A stretch of DNA of 64,000 nucleotides from Lytechinus pictus (taxonomy: Eukaryota): assembly GCF_037042905.1 (NCBI RefSeq), contig NC_087251.1:25918001-25982000 (forward strand), in the 5' to 3' direction. Under the pieces are notes generated by a model. It saw only the letters and a program-made list of their open reading frames with translations, was not told the origin of the DNA and made no database searches. A program made the position numbers and the translations under genes. This document shows, piece by piece, positions 8,680-61,137 of this stretch (the first letter of the stretch is position 1; each line of letters starts with the position of its first letter).

Positions 8680-9225
8680 AGAGGAAGTCCACCCCAACAA
8701 AAAGTCTGTCGAGATAAGAAGAAAATTTATGTCAAATATGCATGAAAGCTTTATAAAACTCGGATATTGAGTTAGAAAGTAGTGACATTTGACAATTATG
8801 CATATTTTTCACAAAAAATGTATGCACAACAAAGTAATATATACTTTGAGAAATATGATGACACACTCTGTATTTCTTTTGTATTTTATTAAGTGAATAT
8901 TTGACATTTTGCAGATTTGACAATGAGGAATATTTTCATAGAATCACGATAAGTTAAAAGAGTGGAAATGCCACATGCTTACAAAGCAAATTTGTTGCAC
9001 ATTATTATGAGGAGAAATAAAAATACTCCATGTTTCATAATAATAAACAAAAAGAAAATGGTGGGTGGGTGATGTCATCTGTTTCCTCATTTCCATACCA
9101 ACCATGATGTACATGTATAACTGTTTTCATAAAATCAAGCAAAATATAAAAATGGTTTTACTCTAATTTACATAAAAAATTGATTCATTTATTCATATCA
9201 TGTTTCTGTTTGATGGACTTACCCA
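8680..9225. mobile_element. Degenerate copy of the TTAA-flanked Kolobok-like MITE family seen at 50313
   Basis: Left end TTAA|AGAGGAAGTCCACCCCAACAAAAAG, decayed right end ...TGGACTTACCCA|TTAA, internal similarity to 50313-50903. Confidence 0.6.
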
Positions 9226-29600: not shown

Positions 29601-32600
29601 GCAGTCTCGCCTGCATTACGCGATTTAATATAGCAGCAGTGCTAACTTTGAAAACTACAATAAAATAATCATTCACAAAAACACCATTCATATAATGACA
29701 TAATACCACGTTCATTGACCATAAATGACATTTGAACGGTGACTTAAGACTTGTCAACTACACCCATGTCCACATTTCATTCACTCTATCCATAAACTTC
29801 AAAGTTATGATGGCAATTCAACAATTACCCCAACATGGCCTAAGTTTATTGACCTTAACTGACCTTTGACCTTGGTTTTGTGACCTGAAACTCACAGGGG
29901 ATGTTCAGTTATACTTGATTACTCTTATATCCCAAGTTTTATGAACTAGATCTATAAACTTTCAGAGTTATGATGGTAATTCAACAAATACCCCCAACAT
30001 GGCCAAAGTTCATTGACCTTTAATGACCTTTGACCATGGTCATGTGACCTGAAACTCGTACAGGATGTTCAGTGATACTTGATTACTCTTATGTCCAAGT
30101 TTTATGAACTAGATCTATAAACTTTCAGAGTTAGGATGGTAATTTAACAAATACCCCCAACACGCCCAAAGTTCATTGACCTTAAATGGCCATTGACCAT
30201 GGTCATGTGACCTGAAACTCGCACAGGATATTCAGTGGTACTTGATTAACCTAATGTCCAAGTTTCATGAACTAGATCCATAAATTTTCAAAGTTATGAT
30301 GGTAATTCAACAAATACCCCCAACTTGGCCAAAGTTCATTGACCCTAAATGACCTTTGACCTTGGTCATGTGACCTGAAACTCAGGCAGGATGTTCACTC
30401 ATACTTGATTAACCTTATGTCCAAGTTTCATGAACTAGATCCATAAATTTTAAAAGTTATGATAGTAATTCAACAAATACCCCCAACTTGACCAAAGTTC
30501 ATTGACCCTAAATGACCTTTGACCTTGGTCACGTGACCTGAAACTCAAGCAGGATGTTCACTAATACTTGATTAACCTTATGCCCATGTTTCATGAACTA
30601 GGTCCATATACTTTCTAAGTTATGATGTCATTTCAAAAACTTAACCTTAGGTTAAGATTTGATGTTGACGCCGCCGCCGTTGCCGTCGGAAAAGCGGCGC
30701 CTATAGTCTCGCTCTGCTATGCAGGCGAAACAAAAATTACCATTTCATTGTCAGATGATGCAATGGAGCTCTGAGGAGTTAGTTTCTCTTACCTTGTAAG
30801 CCCTTAACAGTGTCAGGTGATCACTATTACCAATAGCAAACTCTTGTCGCTTTTTATCTGCCTGGTCTCGTTTGTCAAATGGTGCCATCTAAATGGAAAT
30901 TAAAGACAAAGATAATAATGTGAAGTGATGAGGAAATGCACATATTACAATCTATACAATTAGCCTTAATTCGAACACATATTTCAGTAATCAATAATGA
31001 TAACTGAAATTATGCTACCTTCACTTTGTTATAGGAGTGTATTATATTTTTAATTTCATTTATTTCCTATTCTCATAATGAAAATAAAATCATTGGTATG
31101 CACAAAAAAATATATGAACAATAAAAAGAATCAACATAGAGGCTTCTCAGTACAACATATATCTTTCACAGGGATGTGTTTGGTCCTGAAATGGACCACC
31201 AAAACTCAATGATATGGCAAAGTATATTCTTGCCATCTTCAGGGGGAAAATAAAGAATATTGGGGACCCAGCAGAGAGTTCCAAGTATTGAAATCAAATA
31301 TACAAAAGGGAATAGAGAGAGGTGGGGTGATCATGTGAAAAATAACTGTTGAATACACTTACGAATGGTGATCTAAAGCTGAGACTTGCTGCGATGGTTA
31401 GGACTGGGTCAAGGCACTGGAAGATGGCTCCAAAGAGCATCAGCTTACCGATCCTAACATCTACCGGAAGAGATGCAAGATGGTAGCCCAGAGATGTCAG
31501 ATCCTAAAAGAAAGAGAAAGACGGTAACATTTTGATGGCTTGGGTAAGGATACAAGTGCATATCATGAGACATTGTTGATGTTGTACATAATAGACACAG
31601 TATTTAAACAATGATGATGAGGGTGACAAATTTCATTTAGGCCTATATCAATATTTCTATTTTGTTGGCTGATATTTTTATTTTATTATTTTATCACAAT
31701 TCATGCTCACACCAAAAATGTGCAACATAGAGAGATACAATCAATATGTTCCATTAACAGTAGTTTTTTTGTGCATGGTTTGCCATAGGCTAACAAAGTA
31801 CAGTCATGCTTAATTGTACATTCAATTTTTTTTTTTTACTAAGCACACACATGGGACTACAACTACAATAATTTGACCCATTTGATAGATGCTTGCATTT
31901 TTGCTATGTATATACTAAAGCCTTGCCACAGAACACAGCTGACTGTATTAAAGTCTAGTACTGGGATCTTCTATTAAAAAAAAATCCCTAGACGTCCCCA
32001 AGATGCTGGCATCAGAATAACATGAGGATAAACACCACTGTACTTTAAAGACATTCCAGAAAATCTTTACCAAAATGCAAATCATGTCATGCTTGTCATG
32101 AATGTGATTTCTCTCAGAGTTCAAATCTCTTGATACATAGTGTTATGAAAACAAATTAAAACATAACAAACATCTGTTGAAGCATGCATCAGAATGTCAA
32201 TTCCTACATGGTTGGAAATATGATTACAGTAGAAGGGATCTCGGAAGCTTTCCTATGCATCTCATGATAGGGGAGAAAGAGTTCTTTCTTCTTTGAACTG
32301 AGCATTCTTCATAGGCCAACAGAATAAATCATCTATCAAAAAAATGGCAGACAACAAATGGAAAGAACTTGCTACCTATCACAGGGAGGCCACTCATGGC
32401 ATCTTTAGTATTGCCCCATCCTTGCAAATCAAACAGATTTGAGAAGTGGGCTAGTATTGATTGGCAATGCCATGTTGTTAGTTCCTCTCAACAAAGCATC
32501 TCGATAGCTGCTACTATGCCACGTGTATTTGCATATTTTGTTTTTGATCAATCCTAGAATCATATAGAATCAAATCAATCAGACAAATTTGACTAAAATC

Positions 32601-38600: not shown

Positions 38601-41600
38601 GTAGATAGCAATGTAACTCAGAGTGATGAAGCTTGTTAACTTACCAGGGATGTTAATGACAGGACAATCAAAGAAATAGCTGGAGAATAGATCAGCATTG
38701 AGGGTAGCACTCATGAGAATGATGCGGAGGTCAGGTCGCTGAGGCAACATGTCTCTTAGAACCATCATTAAGAAATCACTGGATTAGAAATAGACAAGTT
38801 TGTGAGATATACCTCAAACATCTATCTAGCCAATTAAAGAAAATATGATGGAATAAGGCTTCAAATATCAATTGATTGAAATAAGTTTACCCTTTCTCGA
38901 TAAGAACGTAAATGTCCTTCATATTAGATATATACAGTACTACTAGTAATTAATGGTCGATGCACACCTGCCAACATTTAGAAATACAAAATCTGTAAAA
39001 CCAATGGCCACGGGGCCGACTAAGCTCCCACAGGGTTCCCCCTGAAATTCATATATTTTAGAAACTGAACCCTAACAGGACCGGTCTTTTCAAGATGTAC
39101 TGAGGACTTGGGGGCATGAATGGGTCTATGGCAATTTTTCTGCCCTTTTAATTTTCTCACATGAAATTTCAGAAATCAGGATGTTCTAATTGTGGGCCAT
39201 TTTGAAAGTTGTAAAAACTAATCAGGACAGTAGGCAGTCTGTCTATGGATTAGTGTGTATGTGTCATCTGACTTCTTACCAATGCTCTCACATTTCTTTC
39301 TTGAATATTCTACCCCTTCCTCTCCACCCCTCTGCTAATTTTTCTCCTACAATTTCAAAACATCTGGGAGCCCATTCAAAGTTTTGTAACTTTACCATTA
39401 TGGCAACTGCCATGGTAGCAGGACTCAGAAGCAAATCACAATCAAGGATACCACGGTGGTTACAATAGTTGAATGCCCTTACGAAAGGGGTCCCCTGGGT
39501 TCTTTCAGCATCCCGTAAGACAGACAATCAAATGTGATTTAGGTGATAACACCCCTGTACCGGCTGCACAGATACATTGTTAGTGCTAACAGAGTACTTA
39601 CAGTAGAACCAGTCCCATCTTTCGGATTGTGATGTCGAATGATGATCCAAAATAATGTGTTGTGACATGAAGCATCGCTGCAATATTATCAGTTGTAACA
39701 GGGCCTCTGTTAGTACATTATTAGTGCTAACAATGTTTATATGCAGCCAGTACAGGTCTTTCATTAGCCATTTACATTCTCAATATCATACCTCTCTTCA
39801 CTTCTCTCATGGACTTCATCCACTATGATATGGGAGACTCCGTTGAGGACAGGGTCACTCTCCAACCTTCTGAGTAAGATTCCCGTCGTACAGAACATCA
39901 GCCGAGTCGAAGAAGACTATAAAAAATAAAGACGAGTTCTGAGGTCCGTTGCAGAAAGAGTTGCGTTTAAACGCAAGTCAAAAAATCAATCGCAAGTCCA
40001 AAATGCGCGCTATTGATTGGTTGAAAATCAAGTTGCGCATGATTTTTAGAGTTGCGTTTGATTGCAACTCTTTCTGCAACGGACCCCTGGTCATTAGAGT
40101 GATCCAAAGAAAGAACAGTCTCATAAGTGGTTGGGAAAAGTTGGTTATCAAGAACTAGTGTCCACTGTAACATTTTTATATTATTTTCATAATCATTACA
40201 ATTATCAGAAAGCATCTTTTAGTTTGCTGCGAGTCACATGAATTGTACATAGAAATATGGATTACACAAAATGCTCAGCCCAAACATCGCTCTGGTTTGG
40301 GTGACATATTTATGTGAGGGCATGTGAAAAGCAATCATTTGCAGCAGACATTTCTATTCATAATTCTCATAAATTCTAATCAGTTAGAAAAACAGAGAAA
40401 ACAAAGCAATCCTTAGCTATATTATGTAGATCTAGTTCTCCATAAACAATGTGCTACTGGAAATTGAGTAGATCCATACAGACATACCTGTTTATTTTCT
40501 AGCCTGATCTGGTAACCCACAACATCTCCTAGCCTGGTGGTCCTCTCCTTGGCCACCCTGTCAGCTACTGCTGTGGCCGAGATCCTCCTGGGTTGGGTAC
40601 AGATGATGTTACTTACATCCAAACCTTTACCTTGAAGGGAGGCATCAAGGATAAACTGAGGCACTTGGGTTGTCTTTCCGCACCTAAAGTGAAAATATAT
40701 AAACAATGATAGAAAGGCCATTGAAAGAGGCATCAATGAAATACAGCCCTGCCTCAGGTCTCACAGGTACAATGAAATTTCTGAATTATAAAATGTATTG
40801 AATATCAACCACATACTTCAAACATCTACATTACCAAATGTTGAGATCTCTTCAACTTAACTTTCACTAGGCCATGGTATTTTGTGAGATCATATTGAGT
40901 GGGGGGGGGGGGGAGGGGAGGGGGGGGGCTCATAGTAAAACATTTAATGAGAGGATCTCAAGGGGGGAGGGGGCAGCCATATGATCTCATAAAATTACCA
41001 GAGTAGTTAGGGTTTGGTTAAAGCAGAGTTCAGAATTCAGGTCAGAAAGTATAAATTTGCAGAATAATCTTATACAAATCATAACTGTAAGTTTATAATA
41101 ATACTAATATGTTCCATTCGTATAGCGCAGCTTCTATAATTGCATATACTCTACTGCGCTTGACACTTGGTATCATATCATTACTTTGGCTGTAGCTGAG
41201 CCATCGTATAGGCGCTAAAGCATTCAAGGAATAAATCCTACCGGGTACCCATTTACCTCATCTGGGTCGAGTGCAGTACAATGTGGGTAAATTTCTTACT
41301 GAAGGAAAACACGCCATGGCTGGGATTTGAACCCACGTCCCTTTGAAAGACAAGAGTCATTATCACTAGACCACGATGCCCCCATGTACACTAGTAACAA
41401 TCAATTATAAATATTGTAAACATAAACTTATTTCTTTTGTTACATCACCGTGTTGTATCTTACCCTGTAGCTCCACTCACTACAAGAACCTGGTACTTGC
41501 TCAAGGTGCCTAGGATGTTATCCTGTTCTTTCCAGGCAGGTAAAGCCTCTCTCCTCTCCAGCATTGACTTGTAAGCATTGCTTGTCTGTACATGAATATA

Positions 41601-44600
41601 AGTAAAGACACATTCAAGAAATATATGGGGGACCAAGGATACTTCATCCAGAGAAAAAAGAATTCTGAACATGCAAAACTATGATGTGAGATATACCTAC
41701 AATCAATCAATGAGTATTTGTGACTGATCACAAGTTATTGTGATACAGGACCCAGAATTTTATTACTGGTTCATAGGAAAATATATAAACACTCCTCATA
41801 AAGCTCCCAAACCCTATCTAATTCAAGTGATATAGTATTGAAAAGAAAACATTTTCAATAAATTATATATTACTTGGGCCTTCTTGAATTGCTCCTTCAG
41901 CCTTCTATTGTCTCTTTCTTCATCTCGTTTACTCCTCTTTGGTGGAACATACAAAGTTCTTCCAAGATTCTTAGCTCCTTCTCTTCCAGTCAACACCTCT
42001 GCTTCCTTTGCATCACCCGCTGTAGCTCCTGAAGCCGAGTCAGACTGTTCATTGAGCAGTGTTTCTCCATCAGGAGATTCTTCTTCTATATCCTCTACAA
42101 CAAGTTTACTCCTTGCAGGCAGTTTCCTAGCCTGAAACGGCAGAGGCTTGCCATCTAGTAATATCCTCATCTCCTGTTCATCCTCCAGGACACCAACAAG
42201 GCTAAACACAGCTGGGCTCCCACTCGATGCATGCTCCAAGGACTCCTCGGCCAGCCGCTTGGTCACGTTCAGGCACTTCGCTGACTGGAAGTCGGGATGG
42301 GTGGATGAAAATGCGATAATCGGTGGTTGCCATGGGTACAAGTTATCACTAGGAAACCGCACCTCCAACTGGTACCACTTGGTGTTGTCCTCATCCATAA
42401 ACTTATCAAACTCTGTATCCTCAGTGTCCCAAGGGGCCTCGTGAACGAACTTGCATCGAGATCCAAACCTACAGCTACCTTCCTGATAGAAATGGCAAAG
42501 ATTCTGTTTTCTCCTACGATTTTCCCTCTCCTTCTCAGCTGACTTCTTCTTTTCATTCTTTTGTGCTTCCTTGAGGGATTTATCGATGTGAGAGAGCTTT
42601 AGTCTCAATGTCCAGACGTGATTAGGTATTCGCTCAGAGAAGTCTGATTCATATATTGAGCTCAAAGCAAAAGCTTCTTCCTGTCTCTGGTCTATGAGAG
42701 ACTCTTTAGTGACACTGTCATCAGCAGCATCTGGGGTGAAAGGAATATAAATCCAACCAAAAGCAAATAAATTTAAGTAAAACTTAAGTATACAGCCTAA
42801 TTTATATGTGAAGAACGGGATGAAATTATCTAACAACTGTTTTTTTTTCTTACACTGCACATTTAAATTGTTTTCTCAAATTGATAAATCAGAATTTTTT
42901 TCAACTTGAAATAAAAATCAAACTTTCCAGACATGTTCCACACACAGGATAACAACAGGGTGCGACATAAGCGCTTGCCCGATTGCCCGGGGCAAGTAAA
43001 AGTTAGAGTCGGGCAAGTGTTTTGAAGTAAAGACAAAAACTACTTGCCCGAATCGGGCAAGCAACATTCTCACTGTGAAATGAAATTTTACAAAGTTTCC
43101 CCATACTTCACATGTAAAAATAAAGGAGAGAGAGAAAAAAAAACGAAGTTAACAACTTCCCTCAATTCAAATTGCAAGCCAGTTTGCGACATTTTTTGTG
43201 ATCTACACACAAAAACACACACACAGTCAGCATACATACATGTGGCTGGTGCGCCCAGCCTCCAGCCTGTGTGACAGGCATGCATGGATCTCCGTGCTGC
43301 TGTGCATACCTGTACTATCCTCGATCAAACTCCGAATCAAAGTGAACAAGCTCACATGAAAAATAGTTTTTCCAACAAAATAATCACAAAATCGGCGGGA
43401 AATTTTTTATACTTATATGGATTCTCAGATTACTGATTTGGTGATGTGATCGGAGGAGCAAGTTATTGAGTTTTCATTACTTGTTTTAGTCGTTGTTTTG
43501 AGTGTTGTTGTGATCAGTGTAGTGGGAAAAAAGATGCGTGCAAGTCCACGATGCCACAATGATTCATTTGATTTTTAAGTTTGTCAATGTTTCTCTGTGA
43601 AATTTTATTCATTTCTAAAACGTTTATTTTTCCAACAATTTTTAAAATATATTTTAAACAAAAAAGAAATATCAGCAAGATTTTTGTTAGATGATTGCAT
43701 TTTTGTTTTGTTTCAAAATTTGAGCTTTCTTCCTCTTTCTTTCTTTCTTTTTCTTCCTTCCTTCCGTAAGTAATCCTTACTTGCTACCTTCCTTCTTTCT
43801 TTCTTTCTTTCTTTTCTATCCTTTCTTCATCCTTTCTTCTATCTTTCCCGCTTGCCTTTTTTGTTCCATCTATCTTTCTTTTTAATCTTTCCTAGCTTTC
43901 TTTCCTGATCTTTTTTTTCTCTCTCTCTGTTCATTTTTCTCTGTCCTTCATTTTCTTACATGTATGTACATGTACTTTCCTTCTTTTAAAAAAATTTCTT
44001 CATTTTTCTTTCCTCTATTTTTTCTTTGCTTCCTTCTCCCTTCCTGACTTTGTTCCTTTTTTTTTCTTTCTTTCCTTCCTTCTTCCATTATTTTTCTTTT
44101 TTTTATTCTCTCTTCACTTCATTCTTTTCATCCTTTCTTTCAATCTTTATTTTCTTCTTTCCTTCTCTTTTTCCTTATTCTTTCTCTCCTTTTTTTCTAT
44201 TTCCTTCCTGTTTTCCCCTTTCTTTCTTTCCGTCCGTCCTTCCTTCCTTCTTCCTTTTCTTTCTTTCTTTAAAAAAATGAAGAAAATCTTTTTTCCTTCA
44301 TTCTCTCTTTCATTCCTTTTTCTTACTTTCTTACCCCCTTTTTTATTTCTTTCCATTCTTTCTTTCACCCATTAATTAATTTTCCCTTCCTTTCCTGTTC
44401 TTTTCTTTCCCTTTTTCTTTATTAATTCAAAGAATGAAGGAAACCTTTTTTTCTTTCCTTTATTCTTCCTTTTTTCTCCATTCATCTCTTGTTTTTCATT
44501 TTTTTCTCTCCTTCAATCTTTCCTTCACCCATTCTTTCACCTTCCCTTTATCTTTCTTTCTTTCTTCCTTCCTTGAAAAAAAAATTACAAAGTACAATAG

Positions 44601-46220
44601 TTCACGTTTAAAGAGAGGAAAGGGGCAATGGTATATAAAATCATATTACTCTCTTTTGCAGCGGTAAATGTATTTTCGGGCAAGTATTTTCCAACTATTT
44701 AGAAATTCACTTGCCCGACCGGGCAAGTGCTTCTAAAAAGTTATGTAGCACCCTGAACAAAACAGCAAATCGTACATTGAAACTCATGCATGTATCATTA
44801 AGAATATTGAAAGGATAAGAAATACTAAAGATTTATTCATTTCCACAATCTCACAAGTGAATTTCTTCAGACTCACCTTGTTCTGACAATATCGAGTGAT
44901 TTTTCAAAAAATCTTTGTAGAGTTGTTCCAATGCTAAACCTGCATCTGCATCATTATCCTCTAATGCTTGCAGACTGTCTTTCTTAGGGTATCCACACCT
45001 AAACACCAACAACAAATAAAAGATATCAAATGTTGCCAAGTAAAGACATGCTTGATTTTTTTTTACTTGCATCTACATGTATTAAGAAGCAAAGACCAGA
45101 ATTAACCAAATCAAATACAAGTATACAGAAGCTAAAAGGAACAAACAGCATGAACTCTGACCTCTGATTGGTACACAGAAGATAAAGTTAAATGTAGTGG
45201 TATTAGAAGAGTCGTGTTGCTATGATAAACTAACCTGATAAGTTTCTCCACAGCATATTTACTGATCTTTTGGGTATCATCTTTGTTTTCTCTATCATCC
45301 TCTTCCTCATGCCAGACACCGAGAGGGGTAAAGCTTGAACCAGATGCCTCTACCTTCAGGGAGTTGTCATCAGTCCAGAAGTGACGATTGGTATCATAAT
45401 CAAGCTCTTCGTAGTCTTCTAGTCTGCAAAGCATGAGATTAAGGGACAGTGATTATTTCAAGTACAGGATATTCTACTGACTGTGTGTAAACAGGGTACT
45501 TAGATCATGGATATTGCATCCTTGATTTTCATACATTCTACAGAGTGTTCTCCATCGAGAAACATTGTAGTTGCTAACAATGCCAGGCTGTCACCGAGTA
45601 TAACTAATCTTACATACCCTGTGATATCATTAAAATGTATTACCCTCCTCCCTCTTCCTTCCCCTTTCTTCCTCGTCCTCTCCCCCTCTCAATAGGATTT
45701 GTCAACAAAATAAACATAGACGGAAAGAAAAATAAGAAAAAGAATGGGAATAAAAAATATTGGAGCGTTGCTAGAAACTTCCAATTTATTGGATGTTTAT
45801 GTTTTTTGTCTTAGTTCTATTGTTATTATCCTCAAATTTGCAGAACAATAAATTGGCACATCTCAAATATCTCACTTATCACCTAGACAAAAATTTAATA
45901 AGATCCCCCATCCCCCTAAAAAACAACAACAACAAGTTTTCTGTGTGCACAAACTACACATCATGAATATGCATCACCTCATTTGCATATCTCATTATGT
46001 ATGCAAACTTCAATTTTTTACATGATATGGACACTTTAGAAACACATCCCATTACAGAACTGATCTCACTATCTTCAAAAGTTATCTAAAATGGACATAA
46101 AGATGATTTTGTTTTTTTATTCATATAAATCAAGCAAAAAATAGTGATTTATATTTCACTAACCACCACACAAAAATATGGTGAAATTTCATAGATGTGA
46201 GGCATCCCTTCATGTACCAT

Positions 46221-46251
<31 letters not shown>

Positions 46252-47621
46252 GCCTAGGTAGCCCTAGGTTCCACAGCTTATTAGTCTGTGAGGAATTTCT
46301 TTAAGGGGACAGGTTGCCCTTGGTGTGGCCTACCATACTTCGGTGGGATGCCCATGATTGGTGATCTTCCCTCGTCCCCAAAATATAATCAAAAGTCAGG
46401 ATAGGTTGTAAACTCTTAAGGTTTCCATAGTGTAAAAGAAGGGTGTAATAGACAATCATATGCCCACAAAATAATACATGGTGTACTGTGCCCCACTACA
46501 CTCCAATGAGTGTAGTGGGGGCACAGCATAGCTCTAATCGGGACCAGGTATCACGCACACCTAGCCTGTAATCCTACCCCATGTCTAGGTCCAGGTCTGC
46601 TCCATGTAGTTCCCTCAAGATATCCTTGACTAGTTCCTGGTTTTCATCACTCATATGGAGGGACTGCATCTTGACCTTGGAGGGTTGATAGTTGCCTCTC
46701 CTGCGACTAGGAGCATTGGATTGATAAGATTGGTAGGCCTTTGGTTGGTGAGTTTGAGGTGCCTGGTAGCTGTGACAAAAGAAAAACACAATGGAAGTAA
46801 TGTGTAAATTGTAATGAATCACTTCAATTTCATTTATTTAATTTGAAATTGACTGAATTATTTTAAGTTGAAATTGCAGATCTGCATAAGAAATAATCAA
46901 ACATACACAAAAAAGTAACTTCACTTATTCTATCCAAAATTCTATCCAATCTCATTTTTGTATTCTATCCAATCTCATTTTTGTATATAATTGTTTTAAT
47001 ATTGAATGTTTAACGTCCAATCAAAGTTGTTTCACAAAATTTCAAACAATCAATATGAATCTTCATATTATTCTAATAAACCTCCAAAATTAGATGAAAT
47101 TCATTTAAAATATAAGATAGATCACTCAATCAAATAGCAATTGTCAATCAAGTTTATACATGTATTGCAAAACAACTATTGGATAATATTTTCCAACACT
47201 ACCTGGATGTCTTCTGCTTGTCCTGTTTGGGCATGAGTACAAAGTCATCATCATCATAGTCATAGGACATGGATACACTCTTGCACTTCCTGGCTCCTGT
47301 GTCTGCCACCGGTCCATAGGGCTTTAGGTTTGACCCTGGCTGCTGGCCTCCACCACCTCTAGCTCCTCCTCCTCTTCCACCACGGCCACTACCTCTTCCT
47401 CCTCGTCCTCTCCCTTCTCCACCTCTACCTCCTCCTCCTCTACCTCTTCCTCCTCCTCTCCCTCCTCCTCCTCTCCCTTCTCCTCCTCTCCCTTCTCCTC
47501 CTCTCCCTTCTCCTCCTCTCCCTTCTCCTCCGCCTCTTCCTCCCCTTCCTCCACGGTTGGCCCTGCCTCCTCCCCTGTTCGGCTTGCCACCCCTTCTCAC
47601 TGCTCCTGATGGTTGGCTCAT
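23594..47621 (-). CDS. DHX57: Putative ATP-dependent RNA helicase DHX57 (DExH box); 25 coding exons, about 1454 aa
   Basis: Exons, all GT-AG with consistent phases, total 4365 nt: 47621-47203, 46769-46578, 45423-45235, 44998-44877, 42730-41874, 41585-41464, 40683-40488, 39916-39792, 38778-38645, 38074-38020, 37424-37210, 36677-36571, 36130-36024, 35531-35358, 34798-34635, 34405-34329, 33993-33898, 31503-31363, 30888-30793, 28201-28118, 27667-27530, 25249-25073, 24807-24718, 24156-24013, 23737-23594. Features: N-terminal RGG tract, UBA-like segment, CCCH finger ([19 protein letters not shown]), RWD-like region, [44 protein letters not shown], and C-terminus [22 protein letters not shown] typical of DHX57. 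Confidence 0.95.
25391..27042. mobile_element. Non-autonomous DNA transposon with 6-bp TSD (hAT-like) in a DHX57 intron
   Basis: TIR CATACCTGCCAACC / GGTTGGCAGGTATG, TSD TCCCTA on both sides, subterminal AATCGGAAT repeats, CpG-rich interior. Confidence 0.88.
29582..30735. mobile_element. Helentron-associated (HINE/DINE-1-like) non-autonomous element with internal 163-bp tandem repeats
   Basis: AACAAG start, subterminal inverted repeat GTCTCGCCTGCAT / ATGCAGGCGAAAC, about 5-6 units of about 163 bp (GACCTTTGACCTTGGTCATGTGACCTGAAACTC), (GCC)n microsatellite, terminal stem-loop, A-rich end, no TSD. Confidence 0.75.
32718..33300 (+). repeat. Two diverged direct repeats of about 140 bp flanking an L2/CR1-type LINE 3' fragment (about 32915-33045)
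   Basis: Repeat core CAACATTTGGTGCAGGTCAAA..CATCCATGAAAATCTGATCAGCTC occurs twice. The intervening DNA translates [21 protein letters not shown]..(frameshift)FKSSLKTF, typical of an L2 ORF2 C-terminus. Confidence 0.65.
39942..40086. mobile_element. PIF/Harbinger-like MITE (145 bp)
   Basis: TIR GGTCCGTTGCAGAAAGAGTTGC / GCAACTCTTTCTGCAACGGACC with 3-bp TSD CTG. Confidence 0.8.
41100..41383 (-). mobile_element. tRNA-derived SINE with the same head and core as 20622
   Basis: Reverse complement begins GGGGGCATCGTGGTCTAGTG..GGTTCAAATCCCAGCCATGG..CTCGACCCAGATGAGGTAAATGGGTACC. Confidence 0.8.
42956..44755. mobile_element. Non-autonomous DNA transposon with 5-bp TSD (hAT5-like) and an internal CT-rich tract (about 43720-44575)
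   Basis: TIR CAGGGTGCGACATAA / TTATGTAGCACCCTG, TSD AACAA, subterminal CTTGCCCG..CGGGCAAG motifs at both ends. Confidence 0.88.
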
Positions 47622-48066
47622 GGTGTAACCGTGTTAGGCTTACTGAAGTCAAAGCACTGTAGAGAGTTTAGGGTGCATGATCATCTAGTATATCCTTGAC
47701 AAGGCGAATCTATGTAATATAAAGATATATTAATAATTAATCAGAATTCAGAAAAAAAATACATTCCCTTATGAATTTAACCAGTGGTGTAATGTGCAAA
47801 AAATCTTGAGGGGGCCAGATATGGTGTATCGGGAAAAATTATTGAAAACTTACAAGTGAATGAAGTGAGCGAGCGAAGATATCTAACATTTTAATTACAA
47901 AAATCCAATTTTGTAACAGATGTTGACATAATATTTTAAGAATAATATCATATTTCACCCTTCTCTCTTTCCTGTTCCTTTTTCTTGGTCGAGAAAAAAT
48001 TGAGGAGGGGGCAAGCACCCCCCCCCCCATCTGCACATCACTCATTTTAACTTTAAAAACTTATAA

Positions 48067-49036
48067 AACAAGTGGAATGCCTCTGGCGGTCTCACCTGAC
48101 CTGCATCACTCGATTCAATATATTAGCAGTGCTGACTTTCAAAACTACTATAAAATAATTATTCACAAAAAACACCATTCATATAATGATACAATACTAC
48201 GTTCATTGACATTTGACCTTGATCATGTGACCTAAAACTTGTCAGTGATACTTGATTACCCCTATATCCACATTTTATACACTATATCTATAAACTCTGA
48301 AAGTTATGACAGCAATCTAATGATTACCTCTAAAATGGCCAAAGTTCAATGAACTTAAATGACCTTTGACATTGGTCATGTGACCTGAAACTTTGATGGG
48401 ATCTTGATTTCTCTTATGTCCAAGTTTCATGAATCAAATCCATAAACTTTCAAAGTTATTATGGTAATTCATCAGATACCCCCCATATTGCCAAAGTTCA
48501 TTGACATTTGACGTTGGTCATGTGACCTGAAATTCGCAAAGGATGTTCAGTGATACTTGATTACTCTTATGTCCAAGTTTTATGAACTAGACCAATAAAC
48601 TTTCAAAGTTATGATGGTAATTAAACAAATACCCCCAACTTGGCCAAAGTTCATTGACCTTACATGACCTTTGACCTTGATCATGTGACCTGAAACTCAC
48701 ACAGGATGTTCAGTGATACTTGATTACTCTTATGTCTAAGTTTCATGAATCAGATCCATAAACTTTTAAAGTTATGATGGTAATTCAACAGATACCCCCA
48801 ATTTGGCCAAAGTTCATTGACCCTAAATGACCTTTGTCATGTGACTTGAAACTCAGGCAGGATGTTTAGTAATACTTGATTAACCTTATGGCCAAGTTTC
48901 ATGAACTAGGTCCATATACTTTCTAAGTTATGCTGTCATTTCAAAAACTTAACCTTCGGTTAAGATTTGGTGTTGACGCCGCCGCCGTCGGAAAAGCGGC
49001 GCATATAGTCTTACTCTGCTATGCAGGTGAGACAAT
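48067..49036. mobile_element. Second HINE/DINE-1-like element, same family as 29582
   Basis: Start AACAAGTGGAATGCCTCTGG, internal units of about 150-165 bp, end GACGCCGCCGCCGTCGGAAAAGCGGCGC..GCTATGCAGGTGAGAC. Confidence 0.75.
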
Positions 49037-51699: not shown

Positions 51700-54391
51700 G
51701 CAAGATAAATCAAAATTTGCGAGCGCGCAGCGCGAGCAGAAACTTTAATATTCAGACCATAAAACTGACATTTTTACCACTCCTAGTACCAATGAGGTCC
51801 AACATTACATGTATGGACCTCATAGGCGACATCAGTAGTATTTTTGGTTAGAAATCTCTGAGAACAGGATATTTAAACATTATATCACAAGTACAAGCTA
51901 TAATTCCTTTCTCTTATTTAAATTATAATTTTATAGTGTAAATGCATCGTTAGCAACAACAAAAAATGAAAGAAATGAAGGGGAACTTACATTTTCACCG
52001 GTATTTTATAGATGGCAAATATAGCGATCTTCAACGCTTATATATAAGCGTCGAAATTTGTAGCCATCTCCTTGTATTAGTCTATATTATACGACGTGTC
52101 AAATTGTAGCGAACTAGTTCGCTATTTCCAGATCTCCTCTATATATATATACACGACGGGAAATTGTAGCGAACTAGTTCGCTATTTTCCAGATCTCCTG
52201 TATATACATACGATGGGAAATTGTAGCGAACTAGTTCGCTATTTTCCAGATCTCCTCTTAACGACGGGAAATTGTAGCGAACTAGTTCGCTATTTTCCAG
52301 ATCTCCTCTATATACAGCCATCTCCTTGTATTAGTCTATATTATACGACGTGTCAAATTGTAGCGAACTAGTTCGCTATTTCCAGATCTCCTCTATATAT
52401 ATATACACGACGGGAAATTGTAGCGAACTAGTTCGCTATTTTCCAGATCTCCTGTATATACATACGATGGGAAATTGTAGCGAACTAGTTCGCTATTTTC
52501 CAGATCTCCTCTTAACGACGGGAAATTGTAGCGAACTAGTTCGCTATTTTCCAGATCTCCTCTATATACATACGATGGGAAATTGTAGCGAACTATAGTT
52601 CGCTATTTTCCAATTCTCCTCTATGTATACGATGGGAAATTGTAGCGAACTAGTTCGCTATTTTCCAGATCTCCTCTATATATATATACACGACGGGAAA
52701 TTGTAGCGAACTAGTTCGCTATTTTCCAGATCTCCTGTATATACATACGATGGGAAATTGTAGCGAACTAGTTCGCTATTTTCCAGATCTCCTCTATATA
52801 TATATACACGACGGGAAATTGTAGCGAACTAGTTCGCTATTTTCCAGATCTCCTATCGCTATTTTCCAATTCTCCTCTATGTATACGATGGGAAATTGTA
52901 GCGAACTAGTTCGCTATTTTCCAGATCTCCTCTATATATATATACACGACGGGAAATTGTAGCGAACTAGTTCGCTATTTTCCAGATCTCCTGTATATAC
53001 ATACGATGGGAAATTGTAGCGAACTAGTTCGCTATTTTCCAGATCTCCTCTTAACGACGGGAAATTGTAGCGAACTAGTTCGCTATTTTCCAGATCTCCT
53101 CTATATACATACGATGGGAAATTGTAGCGAACTAGTTCGCTATTTTCCAGATCTCCTCTATATATATACGACGGGAAATTGTAGCGAACTAGTTCGCTAT
53201 TTTTCGGATATCCTCGATATATACGACGGGAAATTGTAGCGAACTAGTTCGCTATTTTCCAGATCTCCTCTATATATATACGACGGGAAATTGTAGCGAA
53301 CTAGTTCGCTATTTTTCGGATATCCTCGATATATACGACGGGAATTTGTAGCGAACTAGTTCGCTATTTTCCAGATCTCCTCTATATACATACGACGGGA
53401 AATTGTAGCGAACTAGTTCGCTATTTTTCGGATCTCCTCGATATATACACGATGGGGAATTGTAGCGAACTAGTTCGCTACAATTCCAATCGTATTGTTA
53501 GAGGAGATCTGGAAAATAGCAAACTAGTTCGCTACAATTCCCCCTCGTCTATATATCGGGGGGATCCGAAAAAATAGCGAACTAGTTCGCTACAATTCCC
53601 ATCGTATATATAGGCCCTAGAGGAGATCTGGAAAATAGCGAACTAGTTCGCTACAATTCCAATCGTATATATCGAGGAGATCCGAAAAATAGCGAACTAG
53701 TTCGCTACAATTCCCACTGGTGTATATATCGAGGAGATCTGGAAATAGCGAACTAGTTCGCTACAATTTCCCCTCGTCTATATATCGAGGAGATCCAAAA
53801 TAGCGAACTAGTTCGCTAAAATTCCAATCGTATATATCGAGGAGATCCGAAAAATAGCGAACTAGTTCGCTACAATTCCCACTGGTGTATATATCGAGGA
53901 GATCTGGATATAGCGAACTAGTTCGCTACAATTTCCCCTCAGGCGCGGATCCAGGAGGGGGCCGAGCCGGCCCCGGCCCCCCCTATTTTTTGACAACCTG
54001 CAGAAAAAGTGTACTCTTTAACTTGATAGAAACTATGAAAAACAGAAAGAAAAGTAAGAAAGAGGTATCATACCCATGATGTGTAATTTACAACCTCGTA
54101 ACGGCCGGCCAACCCCGAAAGGAAACAATAAAAGGGTGAAGGGGAGAATTAGAAAATAAACTTTATATAAAAAATTTCGCTCGCGCTTCGCGCTCGCATT
54201 GATTGTGTAATGAATCCCATTCAAGAGGATTAAATGGCACTTATACATCCAGATCTGAAATCAATTTTGCACACAATATTTTAGCTCGCACATCAAGCTT
54301 TATTATTTTGTCTGTTTTACACAAATTGTTTATATCAAAGTTTTCAGCTCGCGCTGCGCGCTGGCATTGTTTGATTTGTGAGTTACCTATC

Positions 54392-55885
54392 CACTGGCGT
54401 AAATCCGTGTTGATGGGAGGGGGGGATGACTGAAATATTTTGGCATTTTTTTTGCAATCATGTTTTTAGATATGCAAGGAATTGCCATTGATATGTCCAC
54501 GGTGGCGTACCATGGGTCACGGCATGGGGGGGGCACCAGCAAAAATTTTGAATCACTGAGTGAGTGCGCTAGTGAGCGCGCTCAGTTGCCAGTTATACTG
54601 ACCTAATAGAGACATTTTAAGGACAATGTCATTAAATTGATATGTATCTCACTGATCAAATAATGCGAGCGCGAAGCGCGAGCTGAAATTTTTTCATATT
54701 CACACCTAAAAAGGGACATTATAATCAAATTTGTGTAATCATGATAGGTACCTGTCTCGGTAAACAATGCGAGCGCGAAGCGCGAGTTGAAAATTTAGAT
54801 AATTCAGACCTGAAGTGGGGCATTCTAAGGTTTTTTGTAAGAATTAACTAGGACCATACGTATTTCATTAACCAAATGATGCGAGCGCGAAGCGCGAGCT
54901 GAAAATTTTTGATATTCCGATCAGAAGGGACATTTTAAGGGCTGATTTTAAAGGAATTTATGAAAAGCAGACATATCTCACCAATCCACTAATGCGAACG
55001 TAATCACGGACATGAAATGTTTCATATATACGAAGACCTTAACATGGGGCAATCACTTTTTGAGTCGTGAAAAAGAAGCATATGTCACTACATAAAACAA
55101 TGATAACTCAAGTGCTAGGAAATATATTTGGTTTATATTGAGTTGAAAACGGGATGTTTTAGTACAACAGGATTATATATTACGTTAAACAGACAATGCG
55201 AGCACCAGGAACAATGAAGACGTAGGCCCTGGGCAAATTATGTTTCATAAAGTTATGATAAATATGTTTCTTATGTAATGTAACATAACATAATTATAAT
55301 ATAATATAACATTATAATGAATAATATTTTCTTCTTTCCCACTACATTTCTCTTCCTTTCTCCCTCTTTTCTCCTTTCCCCTTTCCCCGTTTTGTTTTTT
55401 TGGTCAGCCGATGGGGGGGGGGGGGGATGTGCCCCCCATGCCCCCCGTAGTTACGCCACTGTATGTCCATATGGCAAATACCCCTCCAATATTATTATCT
55501 TTTTTACCCCATGATGGTTTAATGGTTTTATTAGAGATTACATTAAAAAAATGTTGACATTCCATCTTAATCCCTTCCCAAAGACCCCAACATTGATGAA
55601 TTGGAAGAAACAGGGGTTTCTCTTCAATGTTATAATAAGGACATAAGTATTTCGTTTGGAAATGGTGAACTGGCTCTTTATTTGCATTTTATGATTCAAT
55701 AATATTGTTTTATTTGTTAAGCGGTATTTTAGGAAGAATTTTCACCAATAAAATAATTATCTCTTGTGATTTTTTTTTAATTTCTTTCGTAAAAAGTGGG
55801 GGGGATGTTTGTACAGGCCATCCCCCCCTCCTCGAAAAGTGGGGGGGATATATCCCCCCCATCCCCCCCGGGATTTACGCCAGTG
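54392..55885. mobile_element. Nested hAT-type MITE with 8-bp TSD
   Basis: TIR CACTGGCGTAAATCC / GGATTTACGCCAGTG, TSD TACCTATC. Confidence 0.9.
54500..55461. mobile_element. Innermost nested hAT-type MITE with 8-bp TSD
   Basis: TIR CGGTGGCGTA / TACGCCACTG, TSD TATGTCCA. Confidence 0.88.
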
Positions 55886-56247
55886 TACCTATCCTCTGGA
55901 AATTCTTACCAAAATATGTCAAAATTCTCCTTTATCATGTCAGTTTATAAAAGAAAATGAGCTCGTGCTTCGCGCTCGCATTTAATTATTTGAGAAACAC
56001 AGCTTTTTCTGTATTTAAATAAAAACGCGCTTAGACTGTCCAGTTTTCAGGTCGGAATATCAAAAATTTTGAGCTCGCACTTCGCACTCTCATTATTTAA
56101 TTGGTGATACTTGTATCCTTTTCATTAATCACTAAAAACAGTCCTAATTGAGTCCCTTTTCACGTTACTATGATAAAATTTAGGCTCGCGCTTCGCGCTC
56201 GCGTTGTTTAGTTGGATACTTATCTTTTTTCATAATTATAATTATCT

Positions 56248-56469
56248 TGGTGGTGATTTTTTTGGTGGTGATTTTTTTACCTGATTGCTAAGAAAGCATG
56301 AATGCTTGTAAGCAAGCAACCAGAGGACCGACGGCTTAAGGTCCCCTCCGAAGGACCTGGTACTGAGGATTAATGCCTTACCAAAGGGCACTAGCGCACC
56401 AAGTGGGAATCGAACCCGGGTTACCGGAATACGAGTCCCCCGCTCTACCGACTGAGCTCTCTCGCCTCC
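56248..56469 (-). mobile_element. tRNA-derived SINE of a second family, inside the 53940 element
   Basis: Reverse complement GGAGGCGAGAGAGCTCAGTCGGTAGAGC (A box)..GGTTCGATTCCC (B box)..GTGCCCTTTGGTAAGGCA, ending in a short tandem-repeat tail. Confidence 0.8.
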
Positions 56470-57279
56470 TCAGAATCTTCAGGTCTAAGGACATGAAATA
56501 TCAAAGAATTTGAGCTCGCGCTTCGCGCTCGCATTATATATTAAGACCACACGAGATACCTTATCTTGTTTATAATAATAAAATTAACATATACTTAAAA
56601 CTTCAGTCTCTCGTTAGGACTACCCCCTAAAAAACCGAAAAAATCAGATTATAGCGGCCAATCGAGAAAAACGTTGATAAAAATATTTTTCGGCCCCCCC
56701 CTATTGGCGAAAGCTGGATCCGCCCCTGCCCCTCGTCTATAATCGAGGAGATCCGAAATAGCGAACTAGTTCGCTACAATTCCCACTGGTGTATATATCG
56801 AGGAGATCTGGAAATAGCGAACTAGTTCGCTACCATTTCCGCCCGTCGTGTATATACAGGAGATCTGGAAAATAGCGAACTAGTTCGCTACAATTTCCGC
56901 CCGTCGTGTATATACAGGAGATCTGGAAAATAGCGAACTAGTTCGCTACAATTTCCCGTCGTATATATATATATAGAGCAGATTTGGAAATAGCGAACTA
57001 GTTCGCTACAATTTCCCGTCGTTAAGAGGAGATCTGGAAAATAGCGAACTAGTTCGCTACAATTTCCCATCGTATGTATATACAGGAGATCTGGAAAATA
57101 GCGAACTAGTTCGCTACAATTTCCCGTCGTGTATATATATATAGAGGAGATCTGGAAATAGCGAACTAGTTCGCTACAATTTGACACGTCGTATAATATA
57201 CACTAATACAAGGAGATGGCTACAAATTTCGACGCTTATATATAAGCGTTTAAGATCGCTATATTTGCCATCTTATAAT

Positions 57280-57775
57280 TTCCCCATTTTCACGGCTTTT
57301 TCCTGATTTTCTGGGCAGCTGCTCTTCTCTTCTGACTCGCGATCGAAGCTGATATGAAGATCACGTGATTCGCGTTCTCGTCAGCTGATCGGTTGGTTAT
57401 TCTTTTCGTCAGACGTTTATAATGCTAGCATTCATCGCTAATTTAGGTGGAAGAGATTGAAGTTAAACAGCGCCAGGTCGGAATCATAATTATTTTGGAA
57501 GAGTGTATTTATACACTCGATCTCATACCTGACGTAGACGGCGCTATTCAACAAATGCACAATCTTCAATATAAAAAATAAAACAGAAAGAACGCCTTGA
57601 ACACAGGCCAAAATGCCTAACGATTTCTCCGCGGCATTAACAACTATCGTAAAGGGCGCTCCATTTATCAATAAAGATGGACGCTAAGCTGTCTATGGCG
57701 ACAAAATTTGCCGCAAATATTTACGAAGAATTGTGAGAAATGGTCTGAAAATGCAACAAAAGAACCGGTGAGTAC
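57280..57775. promoter_or_regulatory. Probable bidirectional CpG-rich promoter (DHX57 leftwards, unknown gene rightwards with first-exon donor CCG|GTGAGT at 57768)
   Basis: CpG-enriched unique sequence with CTCGCGA, E-box ATCACGTGAT, TGACGT and ATGGCG motifs, plus a strong + strand donor. Inference only. Confidence 0.5.
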
Positions 57776-59374: not shown

Positions 59375-61137
59375 GTTGATGGCAGCCACTTTTTATTTGA
59401 TGACGGTTACTTTTGACTTGATGACGGCCACTTTTTATTTGATGACGGTTACTTTTGACTTGATGACGGCCACTTTTTACTTGCTTTTTATTTGATGACG
59501 GTTACTTTTGACTTCATGACGGCCACTTTTGACTTGATGGCGGCTGCTTTTGATTCGATGATGGCTGCTTTTGATTTGATGATGGCTGCTTTTGATTCGA
59601 TAGTGGCCACTTTTGATTTGATGATGGCTGCTTCTGATTTGATGATGGTTGCTTTTGATTCGATAGTGGCCACTTTTGAACTGATGATGGCCACTTTAGA
59701 TTTGATGATGGTCACTTTCAATTTTTTTATCGCTTTTCATTTGATGGTCACTTTTTGTTTGATGGTCACTTTTTATTTGATCACTTAATTTGATGGTCAC
59801 TTTTTATTTGATGGTCACTTTTTATTTGATGGTCACTTTTCATTTGATGGTCACTTTTCATTTGATGGTCGCTTTTAATTTGATGGGCACCTTTTATTTG
59901 ATGATCACTTATTTGATGGTCACTTTTAATTTGATGGTCACTTTTAATTTGATGGTCACTTTTAATTTGATCATCAATTCTTATTTGATGGTCACTTTTA
60001 ATTTGATGGTCGCTTTTTATTTAATGGTCACTTTTTATTTGATGGTCACTTTAAATTTGATGGTCACTTTTTATTTGATGGTCATTTTTAATTTGATGCT
60101 CAGTTTTTATTTGATGGTCACTTTTAATTTGATGGTCGCTTTTTTGTTGCTCACTTTTTATTTGATGGTCACTTTTAATTTGATGGTCACTTTTTATTTG
60201 ATCATCACTTTTTATCTGATCATCACTTCTTTGACGGTCACTTTTTATTTGATGGTCACTTTTTATTTGATGCTCACTTTTCATTTTATGCTCATTTTTC
60301 ATTTGATGCTCACTTTTAATTTGATGATAGATTTTTATTTGATGGTCACTTTTTATTTGATGGTCGCTTTTAATTTGATGGGCACCTTTTATTTGATGAT
60401 CACTTATTTGATGGTCACTTTTTATTTGATGGTCACTTTTTATTTGATCATCACTTTTTATCTGATCATCACTTCTTTGACAGTCACTTTTTATTTGATG
60501 GTCACTTTTTATTTGATGCTCACTTTTCATTTGATGCTCACTTTTTATTTGATGGTCGCTTTTTATTTGATGGTCACTTTTTATTTGATGGTCACTTTTA
60601 ATTTGATGGTCACTTTTTTGTTGGTCACTTTTTATTTGATGGTCACTTTTTATTTGTTGGTCACTTTTTATTTGATGGTCACTTTTTATTTGATGGTTAC
60701 TTTATATTTGATGCTCATTTTTTATTTGATGATCACTTTTTATTAGATGATCACTTTTTATTTGATCATCACTTCTTTGACGGTCACTTTTTATTTGATG
60801 GTCACTTATTATTTGATGCTAACTTTTTATTTGATGCTCACTTTTAATTTGATGGTCGCTTTTTATTTGATGGTTATTTTTTATTTGATGGCTACTTTAA
60901 ATTTGATGATCACTTTTTATTTGATGGTTACTTTTTATTTGATCGTCACTTCTTCTTTGATGGTCACTTTTCTTTTGATCGTCGCTTTTCATTTGATCAT
61001 CACAATTTAAGTTGATGGTTTCGGCATTCCATACATGGTCGCTTTATATTTGATGGTCGCTTTTCATTTGATCGTCGCTTTTATTTGATCGGCACTTTTC
61101 ATTTGGTCGTCGCTTTTCATTTGATCATCACTTTTTA
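59375..61137. repeat. Minisatellite: 21-bp units grading into 18-bp units (TTTGATGGTCACTTTTTA)n
   Basis: Direct reading. Generates the repetitive LMVTFY / KSDHQI ORFs. Confidence 0.95.

Follow-up and report, generated by a model that had tools for sequence, protein, structure and literature searches.

The foldback element at positions 51999-57284 of the stretch analysed here, a window of 64,000 nucleotides from the sea urchin Lytechinus pictus (assembly GCF_037042905.1, contig NC_087251.1, positions 25,918,001 to 25,982,000), is best explained as a non-autonomous, recently spread transposon of the Mutator-like element (MULE) type that arose by internal deletion from an autonomous helicase-transposase element; the probability of this reading is put at roughly three in four. 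As part of the same reading, the autonomous ancestor would have encoded one large protein in which a RecQ-type helicase is joined to a GCM-like zinc domain with helix-turn-helix and to an RNase-H-fold DDE transposase with a CxxH motif. The argument builds on the observed ends and duplications of the element, its copy number, its descent from gene-bearing copies and the domain order in relatives. Taken by itself, the copy in the window is ordinary and non-autonomous, and its foldback form is already known from Tm1 and Muta1; the lineage behind it is the interesting part.

Ends and architecture of the element

The non-autonomous element measures 5,286 bp, and its ends are common to about 55 genomic copies. 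It is enclosed by a 9-bp target-site duplication, CATTTTCAC, which is identical at 51990-51998 on the left and 57285-57293 on the right. An earlier, sequence-only reading had placed the ends at 52011 and 57272 and the duplication in the sequence TTATA. The same flanking 12-mers were found at 30 of the 30 loci listed, so that both borders move 12 bp outward and TTATA becomes internal to the element. TTATA and TAT were rejected as target duplications on the same ground, the flanks being identical at all copies. With termini and duplication misplaced, the superfamily had stayed hidden; duplications of 8-9 bp together with asymmetric tips point to a Mutator-like foldback.

The tips lie outside the inverted repeat proper. 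The left tip, CGGTATTTTATA, occupies 51999-52010 on the forward strand (55 genome matches, control 0), and the right tip, which reads inward as GGGAAATTATAA, occupies 57273-57284 on the reverse strand. They are followed by the non-repetitive parts of the terminal inverted repeats (TIRs) at 52011-52106 (forward) and 57177-57272 (reverse). The left one harbors a second 18-bp palindrome at 52034-52051, as had been described earlier, and the same palindrome recurs in the right one at 57232-57249. The left arm (52107-53462, forward) consists of 23 forward units with 22 exact cores and one variant (52586); inside it, an internal duplication of 254 bp brings a second copy of part of the TIR near 52316-52360. 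At the central core (53463-53480), which has inverted flanks, the unit orientation flips. The right arm continues on the reverse strand with eight units in its inner part (53481-53939, one variant at 53517) and eight in its outer part (56729-57176). The two arms mirror one another over 285 bp with 2 mismatches.

The near-invariant 18-bp palindrome that had first drawn attention to the element is present in 38 exact copies and 2 variants, all within 52107-57176, and is found nowhere else in the window. The earlier count of 16 reverse units stands, while the roughly 25 forward units reduce to 23 plus the central one at 53463. Exact cores follow each other at intervals of 51-61 bp in 32 of 37 cases, and the expected SpeI fragments of 50-60 bp are borne out by the sequence, in which 34 of 38 SpeI intervals measure 51-61 bp. 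The absence of a coding region was likewise upheld: open reading frames (ORFs) of at least 100 codons inside the element are read-throughs of the repeat only. The description of an element built almost entirely of units, without a unique middle, fails for the window copy, in which nested foreign elements at 53940-56728 interrupt the right arm and make up 2,789 of the 5,286 bp; it holds once these are removed.

Genomic copies and recent spread

The genome searched comprised 812 Mb in 368 contigs. A TIR pattern gave 114 matches (control, 1), and the left and right tips gave 55 matches each (controls, 0), of which three right-tip matches with two mismatches may be due to chance. The exact 18-mer occurs 1,367 times, compared with 0 for its reversed control, which is about the content to be expected of 55 copies with some 25 cores each. 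The proposed mobile foldback element is thus multicopy, with about 55 paired ends, and the single-copy case is excluded.

About 21 of the 55 copies were examined in full or at both ends. Paired copies span 1.3 to 22.7 kb, the arms reach 0.5-2.5 kb, and the smaller complete copies carry 19-51 cores. Target-site duplications, which the sequence-only reading had proposed to check, were indeed found, but they measure 8-9 bp in 19 of 21 complete pairs and are not TTATA: 14 pairs have an exact 9-bp and four an exact 8-bp duplication, one has a 9-bp duplication with a mismatch, and two have none. By inspection, the target sites share no sequence. The left ends are 99-100% identical over 107 bp (n = 20 reads, with overlapping loci and the window's own copy included), which argues for a recent spread.

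Inverted duplications and chimeric reads are a known source of foldback structures in long-read assemblies, and the element could in principle be such an artefact. This explanation is given a negligible probability, as the copies are dispersed, number in the dozens and have asymmetric tips and nested insertions in common; their distinct 8-9-bp duplications already refute it.

Two side observations concern the copies. Eight loci (L031, L038 and L040-L045) form a sub-family of 2-3-kb copies whose members have in common 334 bp of degenerate units as well as a short middle of unique sequence. The insertion site of the 22.7-kb copy on C2 lies some 90 bp upstream of an exon (L034:2-472; G000:C2:16447400-16447840) that resembles quinolinate phosphoribosyltransferase. 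MULEs favour the 5' ends of genes.

Remnants of the family's gene

Three larger copies (C16, C2 and C5) retain gene remnants. C16, an older copy, has these just inside its right tip. Of the helicase, which is of RecQ type, the C-terminal half is kept (Helicase_C, E 4.6e-5), and it is accompanied by a cysteine/histidine domain, an inserted LINE and a transposase core. The core is broken by a stop codon and frameshifts, and the helicase N-terminus has been lost through a deletion from the array. The C2 copy, which has exact young ends and an 8-bp duplication, and the C5 copy hold rearranged fragments that are 92-98% identical to the C16 remnants. Of the transposase or recombinase ORF that the sequence-only reading proposed to look for between matching TIRs, broken transposase remnants were found in these three copies, and no intact frame in the assembly, whose search gives a lower bound. 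The outer nested element of the window copy sits at the identical base in C2 and C5, and through it the window copy is linked by descent to copies that bear the gene.

More complete copies exist in other samples, since contigs from three public sequencing runs lack the LINE and one of them, 4.5 kb long, extends into upstream helicase sequence that is missing in C16. None of the listed run contigs spans the whole gene. Large copies (C2, C5, C9) had been considered as intact masters and were rejected, as their interiors consist of nested retroelements, satellites and short gene fragments; the 6-8-kb copies C7, C10 and C14 gave no match to the fused protein. In C2 and C5 (L032:5063-5462, L035:3773-4172) and in the annotated protein P0001, the transposase precedes the helicase, the reverse of the order in C16 and in relatives. 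The transposase-then-helicase junction also appears in runs X1 and X2 and is probably the scar of a tandem duplication.

Relatives with a fused RecQ helicase, GCM-like domain and DDE core

A HMMER search returned 235 cluster representatives, and a word-index search for longer homologues returned one protein. In other organisms, the relatives encode the protein in a single ORF of 1,300-1,600 residues in which a RecQ helicase, a GCM-like zinc domain and a MULE-type DDE transposase are joined. P0153 illustrates this arrangement in a single ORF of 1,290 amino acids with DEAD, Helicase_C, RecQ zinc, zinc domain and core, and it matches the three main C16 pieces, whose order it keeps, at 44-48% identity. 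Its helicase has Walker A, DEAH and motif VI. The helicase parts match DEAD and Helicase_C, and weakly RecQ_Zn and RQC. In P0034/P0170 the same ORF additionally carries an N-terminal protein kinase. Kinase frames also lie upstream of the helicase in L073, L075, L083 and L089, and in L075 (156-1337) a Mutator-like transposase frame of PF20700 type is located directly upstream of the kinase frame.

Among 24 metagenome loci, which by inspection represent about nine families with many near-identical copies, the helicase lies upstream of the core in 17; in three the contig start is too close, in one the core is lacking and three are marginal. Uninterrupted frames of 1,327-1,369 codons are present in L069 and L078-L080. 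Arrays beside the ORF, each built on an imperfect palindrome, have periods of 57, 66, 54 and 73 bp in L074, L078, L084 and L072, respectively, and in the L073-L077 family the 57-bp unit is found upstream and, inverted, downstream. The motif T[AT]GC[GC]A-N6-T[GC]GC[TA]A, which agrees with the 18-mer of the window in half-site and geometry, has 14 sites in 6 of the 24 loci. It has none in the remaining 58.7 kb of the window or in 17 unrelated MULE loci, which may not extend to their own ends. In L070, an ORF outside the element (8902-11178) has a weak, sub-threshold match to the stonustoxin helical domain (E 0.005).

The copies might have been moved in trans by another MULE of the genome, for example one of the FLYWCH/Phantom type at C20:115.9-116.8 kb, in which case the helicase-transposase remnants would be a dead ancestor or cargo that had been captured. 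Other PF10551 loci number at least 17 in the genome, some with long open frames, and the cognate gene is broken in the assembly. However, no core lies within about 1.5 kb of any of the 17 PF10551 matches (which may extend beyond that distance), palindromes of a similar kind accompany relatives of the fused gene, and run contigs show more complete copies of the fused gene in the population, which together make this explanation quite improbable. The canonical PF10551 proteins of the genome had no tblastn match to C16 or to the family copies compared, and none of the 19 FLYWCH matches in the genome lies inside a mapped copy of the family. The locus on C20 (L047, G000:C20:114928-118221) encodes a Phantom-type FLYWCH and MULE transposase that is unrelated to the foldback family by tblastn.

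Assignment of the transposase core and the zinc domain

The family core profile aligns with canonical MULE transposases (hhalign, alignment A4) at 94.8% probability (E 5e-8), and its D, D, CxxH and E line up with theirs. The second aspartate and the cysteine are at least 90% conserved among 50 sequences. The cores weakly match PF10551 and PF00872, and Atlas gives scores of 0.93-0.94 to PF10551 clusters. The predicted structure of P0003 (pLDDT 84.9) has its best Foldseek match in ISCth4, an IS256/Mutator-like transposase (E 1.4e-4). A small all-beta domain follows the core in P0003 (residues 565-620); two members weakly match Agenet, so that the domain may be a Tudor-like chromatin reader.

In both structural searches the zinc domain best matched GCM bound to DNA (Z 7.3, rmsd 4.0, 134 aligned residues; Foldseek E 0.023), followed, for its C-terminal helices, by helix-turn-helix domains. 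Atlas places it at 0.95 to a cluster with 12% PF03615. A PDB sequence search gave nothing significant for either profile. In WRKY-GCM1-domain MULE transposases, a zinc domain with the WRKY-GCM1 fold lies N-terminal to the MULE core; the available text that describes them does not contain the word "helicase" (PMC1702500). The zinc-domain scores are modest but would fit these known domains.

Several general features of MULEs are shared by the family, namely the 8-9-bp duplication in 19 of 21 pairs, which falls within the 8-11 bp without sequence preference typical of the superfamily, and the long terminal inverted repeats, which comprise the near-perfect 285-bp mirror and the arrays. TIRs made of subterminal tandem repeats in variable number are, in addition, a feature of Muta1-like type-2 foldbacks. 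The FLYWCH domain (PF04500) that marks the Phantom subclass was not matched in any member.

The 18-bp palindrome as a candidate binding site

In a set of 429 oriented units drawn from 15 copies, conservation is 0.92-1.00 at the core positions and 0.39-1.00 in the flanks, the low flank values arising partly because TA runs slip. The earlier proposal of an array of sites for a dimeric protein probably holds, judging from the similar palindromes that relatives keep beside the transposase ORF; that protein is most likely the transposase of the family itself rather than a recombinase or a host factor. By analogy with the subterminal repeats of Muta1, and because several relatives carry similar palindromes beside their ORF, the 18-mer is most likely a transposase-binding site. 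The proposed hairpin formation was reproduced to the extent that single-strand hairpins are predicted (z = -9.9), but such hairpins follow from any palindrome and are thus no evidence of function.

Alternatively, the 18-mer might be no protein site at all and the array a neutral minisatellite that grew inside a MULE, with the core appearing invariant through recent amplification and only the TA runs slipping. The copies are very young, the ATTG and TTT positions beside the core likewise reach a conservation of 0.97-1.00 among the 429 units, and the number of units varies freely, from 19 to 51 cores in the smaller complete copies. Against this, the half-site and the 18-bp geometry recur in families whose proteins share only 28-38% identity. 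In old sea-urchin arrays, variation is greatest at positions 2 and 5, which are also the positions that vary between families. According to the available text on Muta1, its repeats are bound and raise excision (PMC5499845). Neutral growth is considered unlikely.

A number of observations weigh against the MULE assignment, a family gene of its own or the shared binding site. PF10551 stays below its curated cut-off throughout (best 21.9 bits versus 27.6) and is matched at E <= 0.05 by 4 of 50 members (best 2.5e-4); these sub-cut-off matches are those of a divergent lineage. In VIA-align, ISCth4 (Z 11.1) is tied with the hAT transposase Hermes (Z 11.0), and the GCM score lies within the range that the tool rates as common. 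The search of the assembly, a lower bound, returned one broken transposase locus and two fragments but no intact gene. One RNA run, of which 6% was read, contained 0 reads on transposase or helicase, and there was no RNA run among the sequencing runs listed for the transposase locus. No matching duplication flanks the C16 and C5 copies. Among the relatives, the cross-species motif was derived from L070-L072, which share one assembly prefix; L081, L083 and L086 are the only semi-independent motif loci, with one site each, and the spacers differ in L074, L078 and L084. L069 has no array within its contig, and L070, the only relative with both ends, has 220-bp inverted ends for which no duplication was found. 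Lastly, where sea-urchin arrays are degenerate, the six central bases are conserved as strongly as the half-sites, partly as a result of the matching rule.

Proposed mechanism of transposition

By analogy with Muta1, the family transposase would bind the 18-bp inverted half-sites cooperatively along both arms. The bound transposase would then pair the ends, cut at the tips and insert with a stagger of 9 bp, sometimes 8 bp. More units would lead to more binding and excision, which could be why the cores are retained while the TA-rich linkers slip. That the 18-mers bind paired GCM-like domains, that the tips position cleavage and that insertion is staggered by 8-9 bp is considered likely, again on the model of Muta1. 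More doubtful, and speculative, is the part of the fused helicase, which might melt hairpin or foldback structures or drive gap repair at the donor site; either role would also explain the frequent internal deletions and the unequal arms. The helicase would not be needed for the 9-bp duplication itself, because Muta1 and Tm1 make one without a helicase.

Comparison with known systems

Modular foldback arms are known from the Drosophila FB and the sea-urchin TU elements, and the outer-domain units of TU measure about 15 bp. The remaining systems are compared here through the available portions of their published descriptions. Tm1 is a Mutator/Foldback family of root-knot nematodes (PMC3169594). 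Like the sea-urchin family, it has short asymmetric tips that lie beyond the inverted repeat (CGG.. on one side, ..CCC on the opposite one), variable numbers of tandem units per arm, mostly 9-bp duplications and mostly non-coding copies. Tm1 differs in its direct-repeat units of about 14 bp and its Phantom-type transposase (FLYWCH and MULE), whereas the sea-urchin family has 51-61-bp units with a palindromic core and a GCM-like domain with a fused RecQ helicase.

Muta1 of Aedes aegypti is a type-2 foldback MULE with 8- or 9-bp duplications and many non-autonomous derivatives (PMC5225508, PMC5499845). Its subterminal repeats are bound by the transposase, differ only in their linkers and raise excision with copy number (PMC5499845). 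The type-2 foldback form, the 8-9-bp duplications and the conserved subterminal repeats with differences confined to linkers are common to both families. The TIR of Muta1, however, is 145 bp long and contains nine direct repeats of 12 bp, and its transposase has 504 aa and no helicase, in contrast to arms of 0.5-2.5 kb and a protein of about 1,300 aa or more in the sea-urchin family. Tetris likewise has modular foldback arms and 8-10-bp duplications, on which basis it was assigned to Mutator, but no transposase is known for it in the available text (PMC4079207).

AcademH is a DNA transposon with a RecQ helicase and a duplication of about 9 bp that occurs in animals and fungi (PMC10045372, PMC10799480, PMC3627910), and the family could conceivably be an AcademH element in foldback form. 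Both encode a RecQ helicase, which is present in Academ (PMC3627910), and AcademH makes 9- or 10-bp duplications (PMC10045372). In a 2017 survey, as far as its available text goes, Academ cores matched no Pfam family (PMC5751038), whereas the family's cores weakly match PF10551/PF00872. The family's duplications are mostly 9 bp, 8 bp in four pairs and 10 bp in none. Its helicase and transposase form one ORF on foldback arms, and its MULE-like core with CxxH argues against an Academ-type core, AcademH having been compared by description. On balance, an AcademH origin is very improbable. KolobokH also combines a CxxH-group transposase with a RecQ helicase and is reported only from fungi (PMC9587614). 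It makes a 4-bp TTAA duplication and has its helicase downstream of the transposase; the sea-urchin family and its relatives show variable 8-9-bp duplications and an upstream helicase in 17 of 24 loci.

No RecQ-fused MULE was found in the literature searched, which did not cover Repbase, Dfam or the AcademH, Phantom and TU papers. The word "helicase" does not occur in the available text of a review covering 1,631 MULEs (PMC6446971), in three of its supplementary files or in the accessible part of its Table 1, and a motif search of the three files gave no match. The RecQ-fused lineage seems, provisionally, to be undescribed.

Nested insertions and neighbouring features

The outer nested element of the window copy (53940-56728) is a miniature element of the CAG..CTG type whose inverted ends measure 15 bp and whose duplication, CCCCT, measures 5 bp, and at the shared site in C2 and C5 it is present as a 1.1-kb form. 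A second, hAT-like miniature element (54392-55885) has 15-bp inverted ends and an 8-bp duplication and is absent from the C2, C5 and C20 copies. It holds a third element (about 54500-55461) that also has an 8-bp duplication, so the duplication size differs between the outer element (5 bp) and the two inner ones (8 bp). A SINE-like insertion on the reverse strand (56249-56466), with a B-box-like motif by eye, is absent from the C2 and C5 copies; ARAGORN found no tRNA in it.

Exons of a DEAH-box helicase gene lie at 40422-47633 on the minus strand, and the foldback element is located about 4.4 kb upstream of the gene start. This gene resembles DHX57, with an RG-rich start, a CCCH finger and RWD-like and helicase motifs. 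At 59376-61137 the window contains tandem arrays with 21-bp and 18-bp periods (about 81 copies of the 18-mer) and long open frames on both strands. One 163-bp unit forms two further arrays, at 29766-30627 and 48242-48932.

Significance for the family

The widest proposal, which falls somewhat short of even odds, is that an undescribed MULE lineage in the DNA of several animals encodes a single RecQ helicase-GCM-DDE fusion, in some cases with an N-terminal kinase, and needs the helicase to move its long palindromic foldback arms. If true, DNA transposons would have recruited a RecQ helicase independently for a third time, AcademH and KolobokH being the other two cases. The available portions of the literature searched give no reason for the presence of RecQ helicases in some cut-and-paste transposons. 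Intact single-exon fusions and a defined binding site would, if the proposal holds, make the role of the helicase directly testable, with the intact single ORFs (P0153, L078-L080), the candidate 18-bp site and, as substrates, dozens of natural mini-elements. The sea-urchin foldback family is connected with its transposase, as elements like Tetris so far are not, and a family name is supplied for some 235 unannotated protein clusters.

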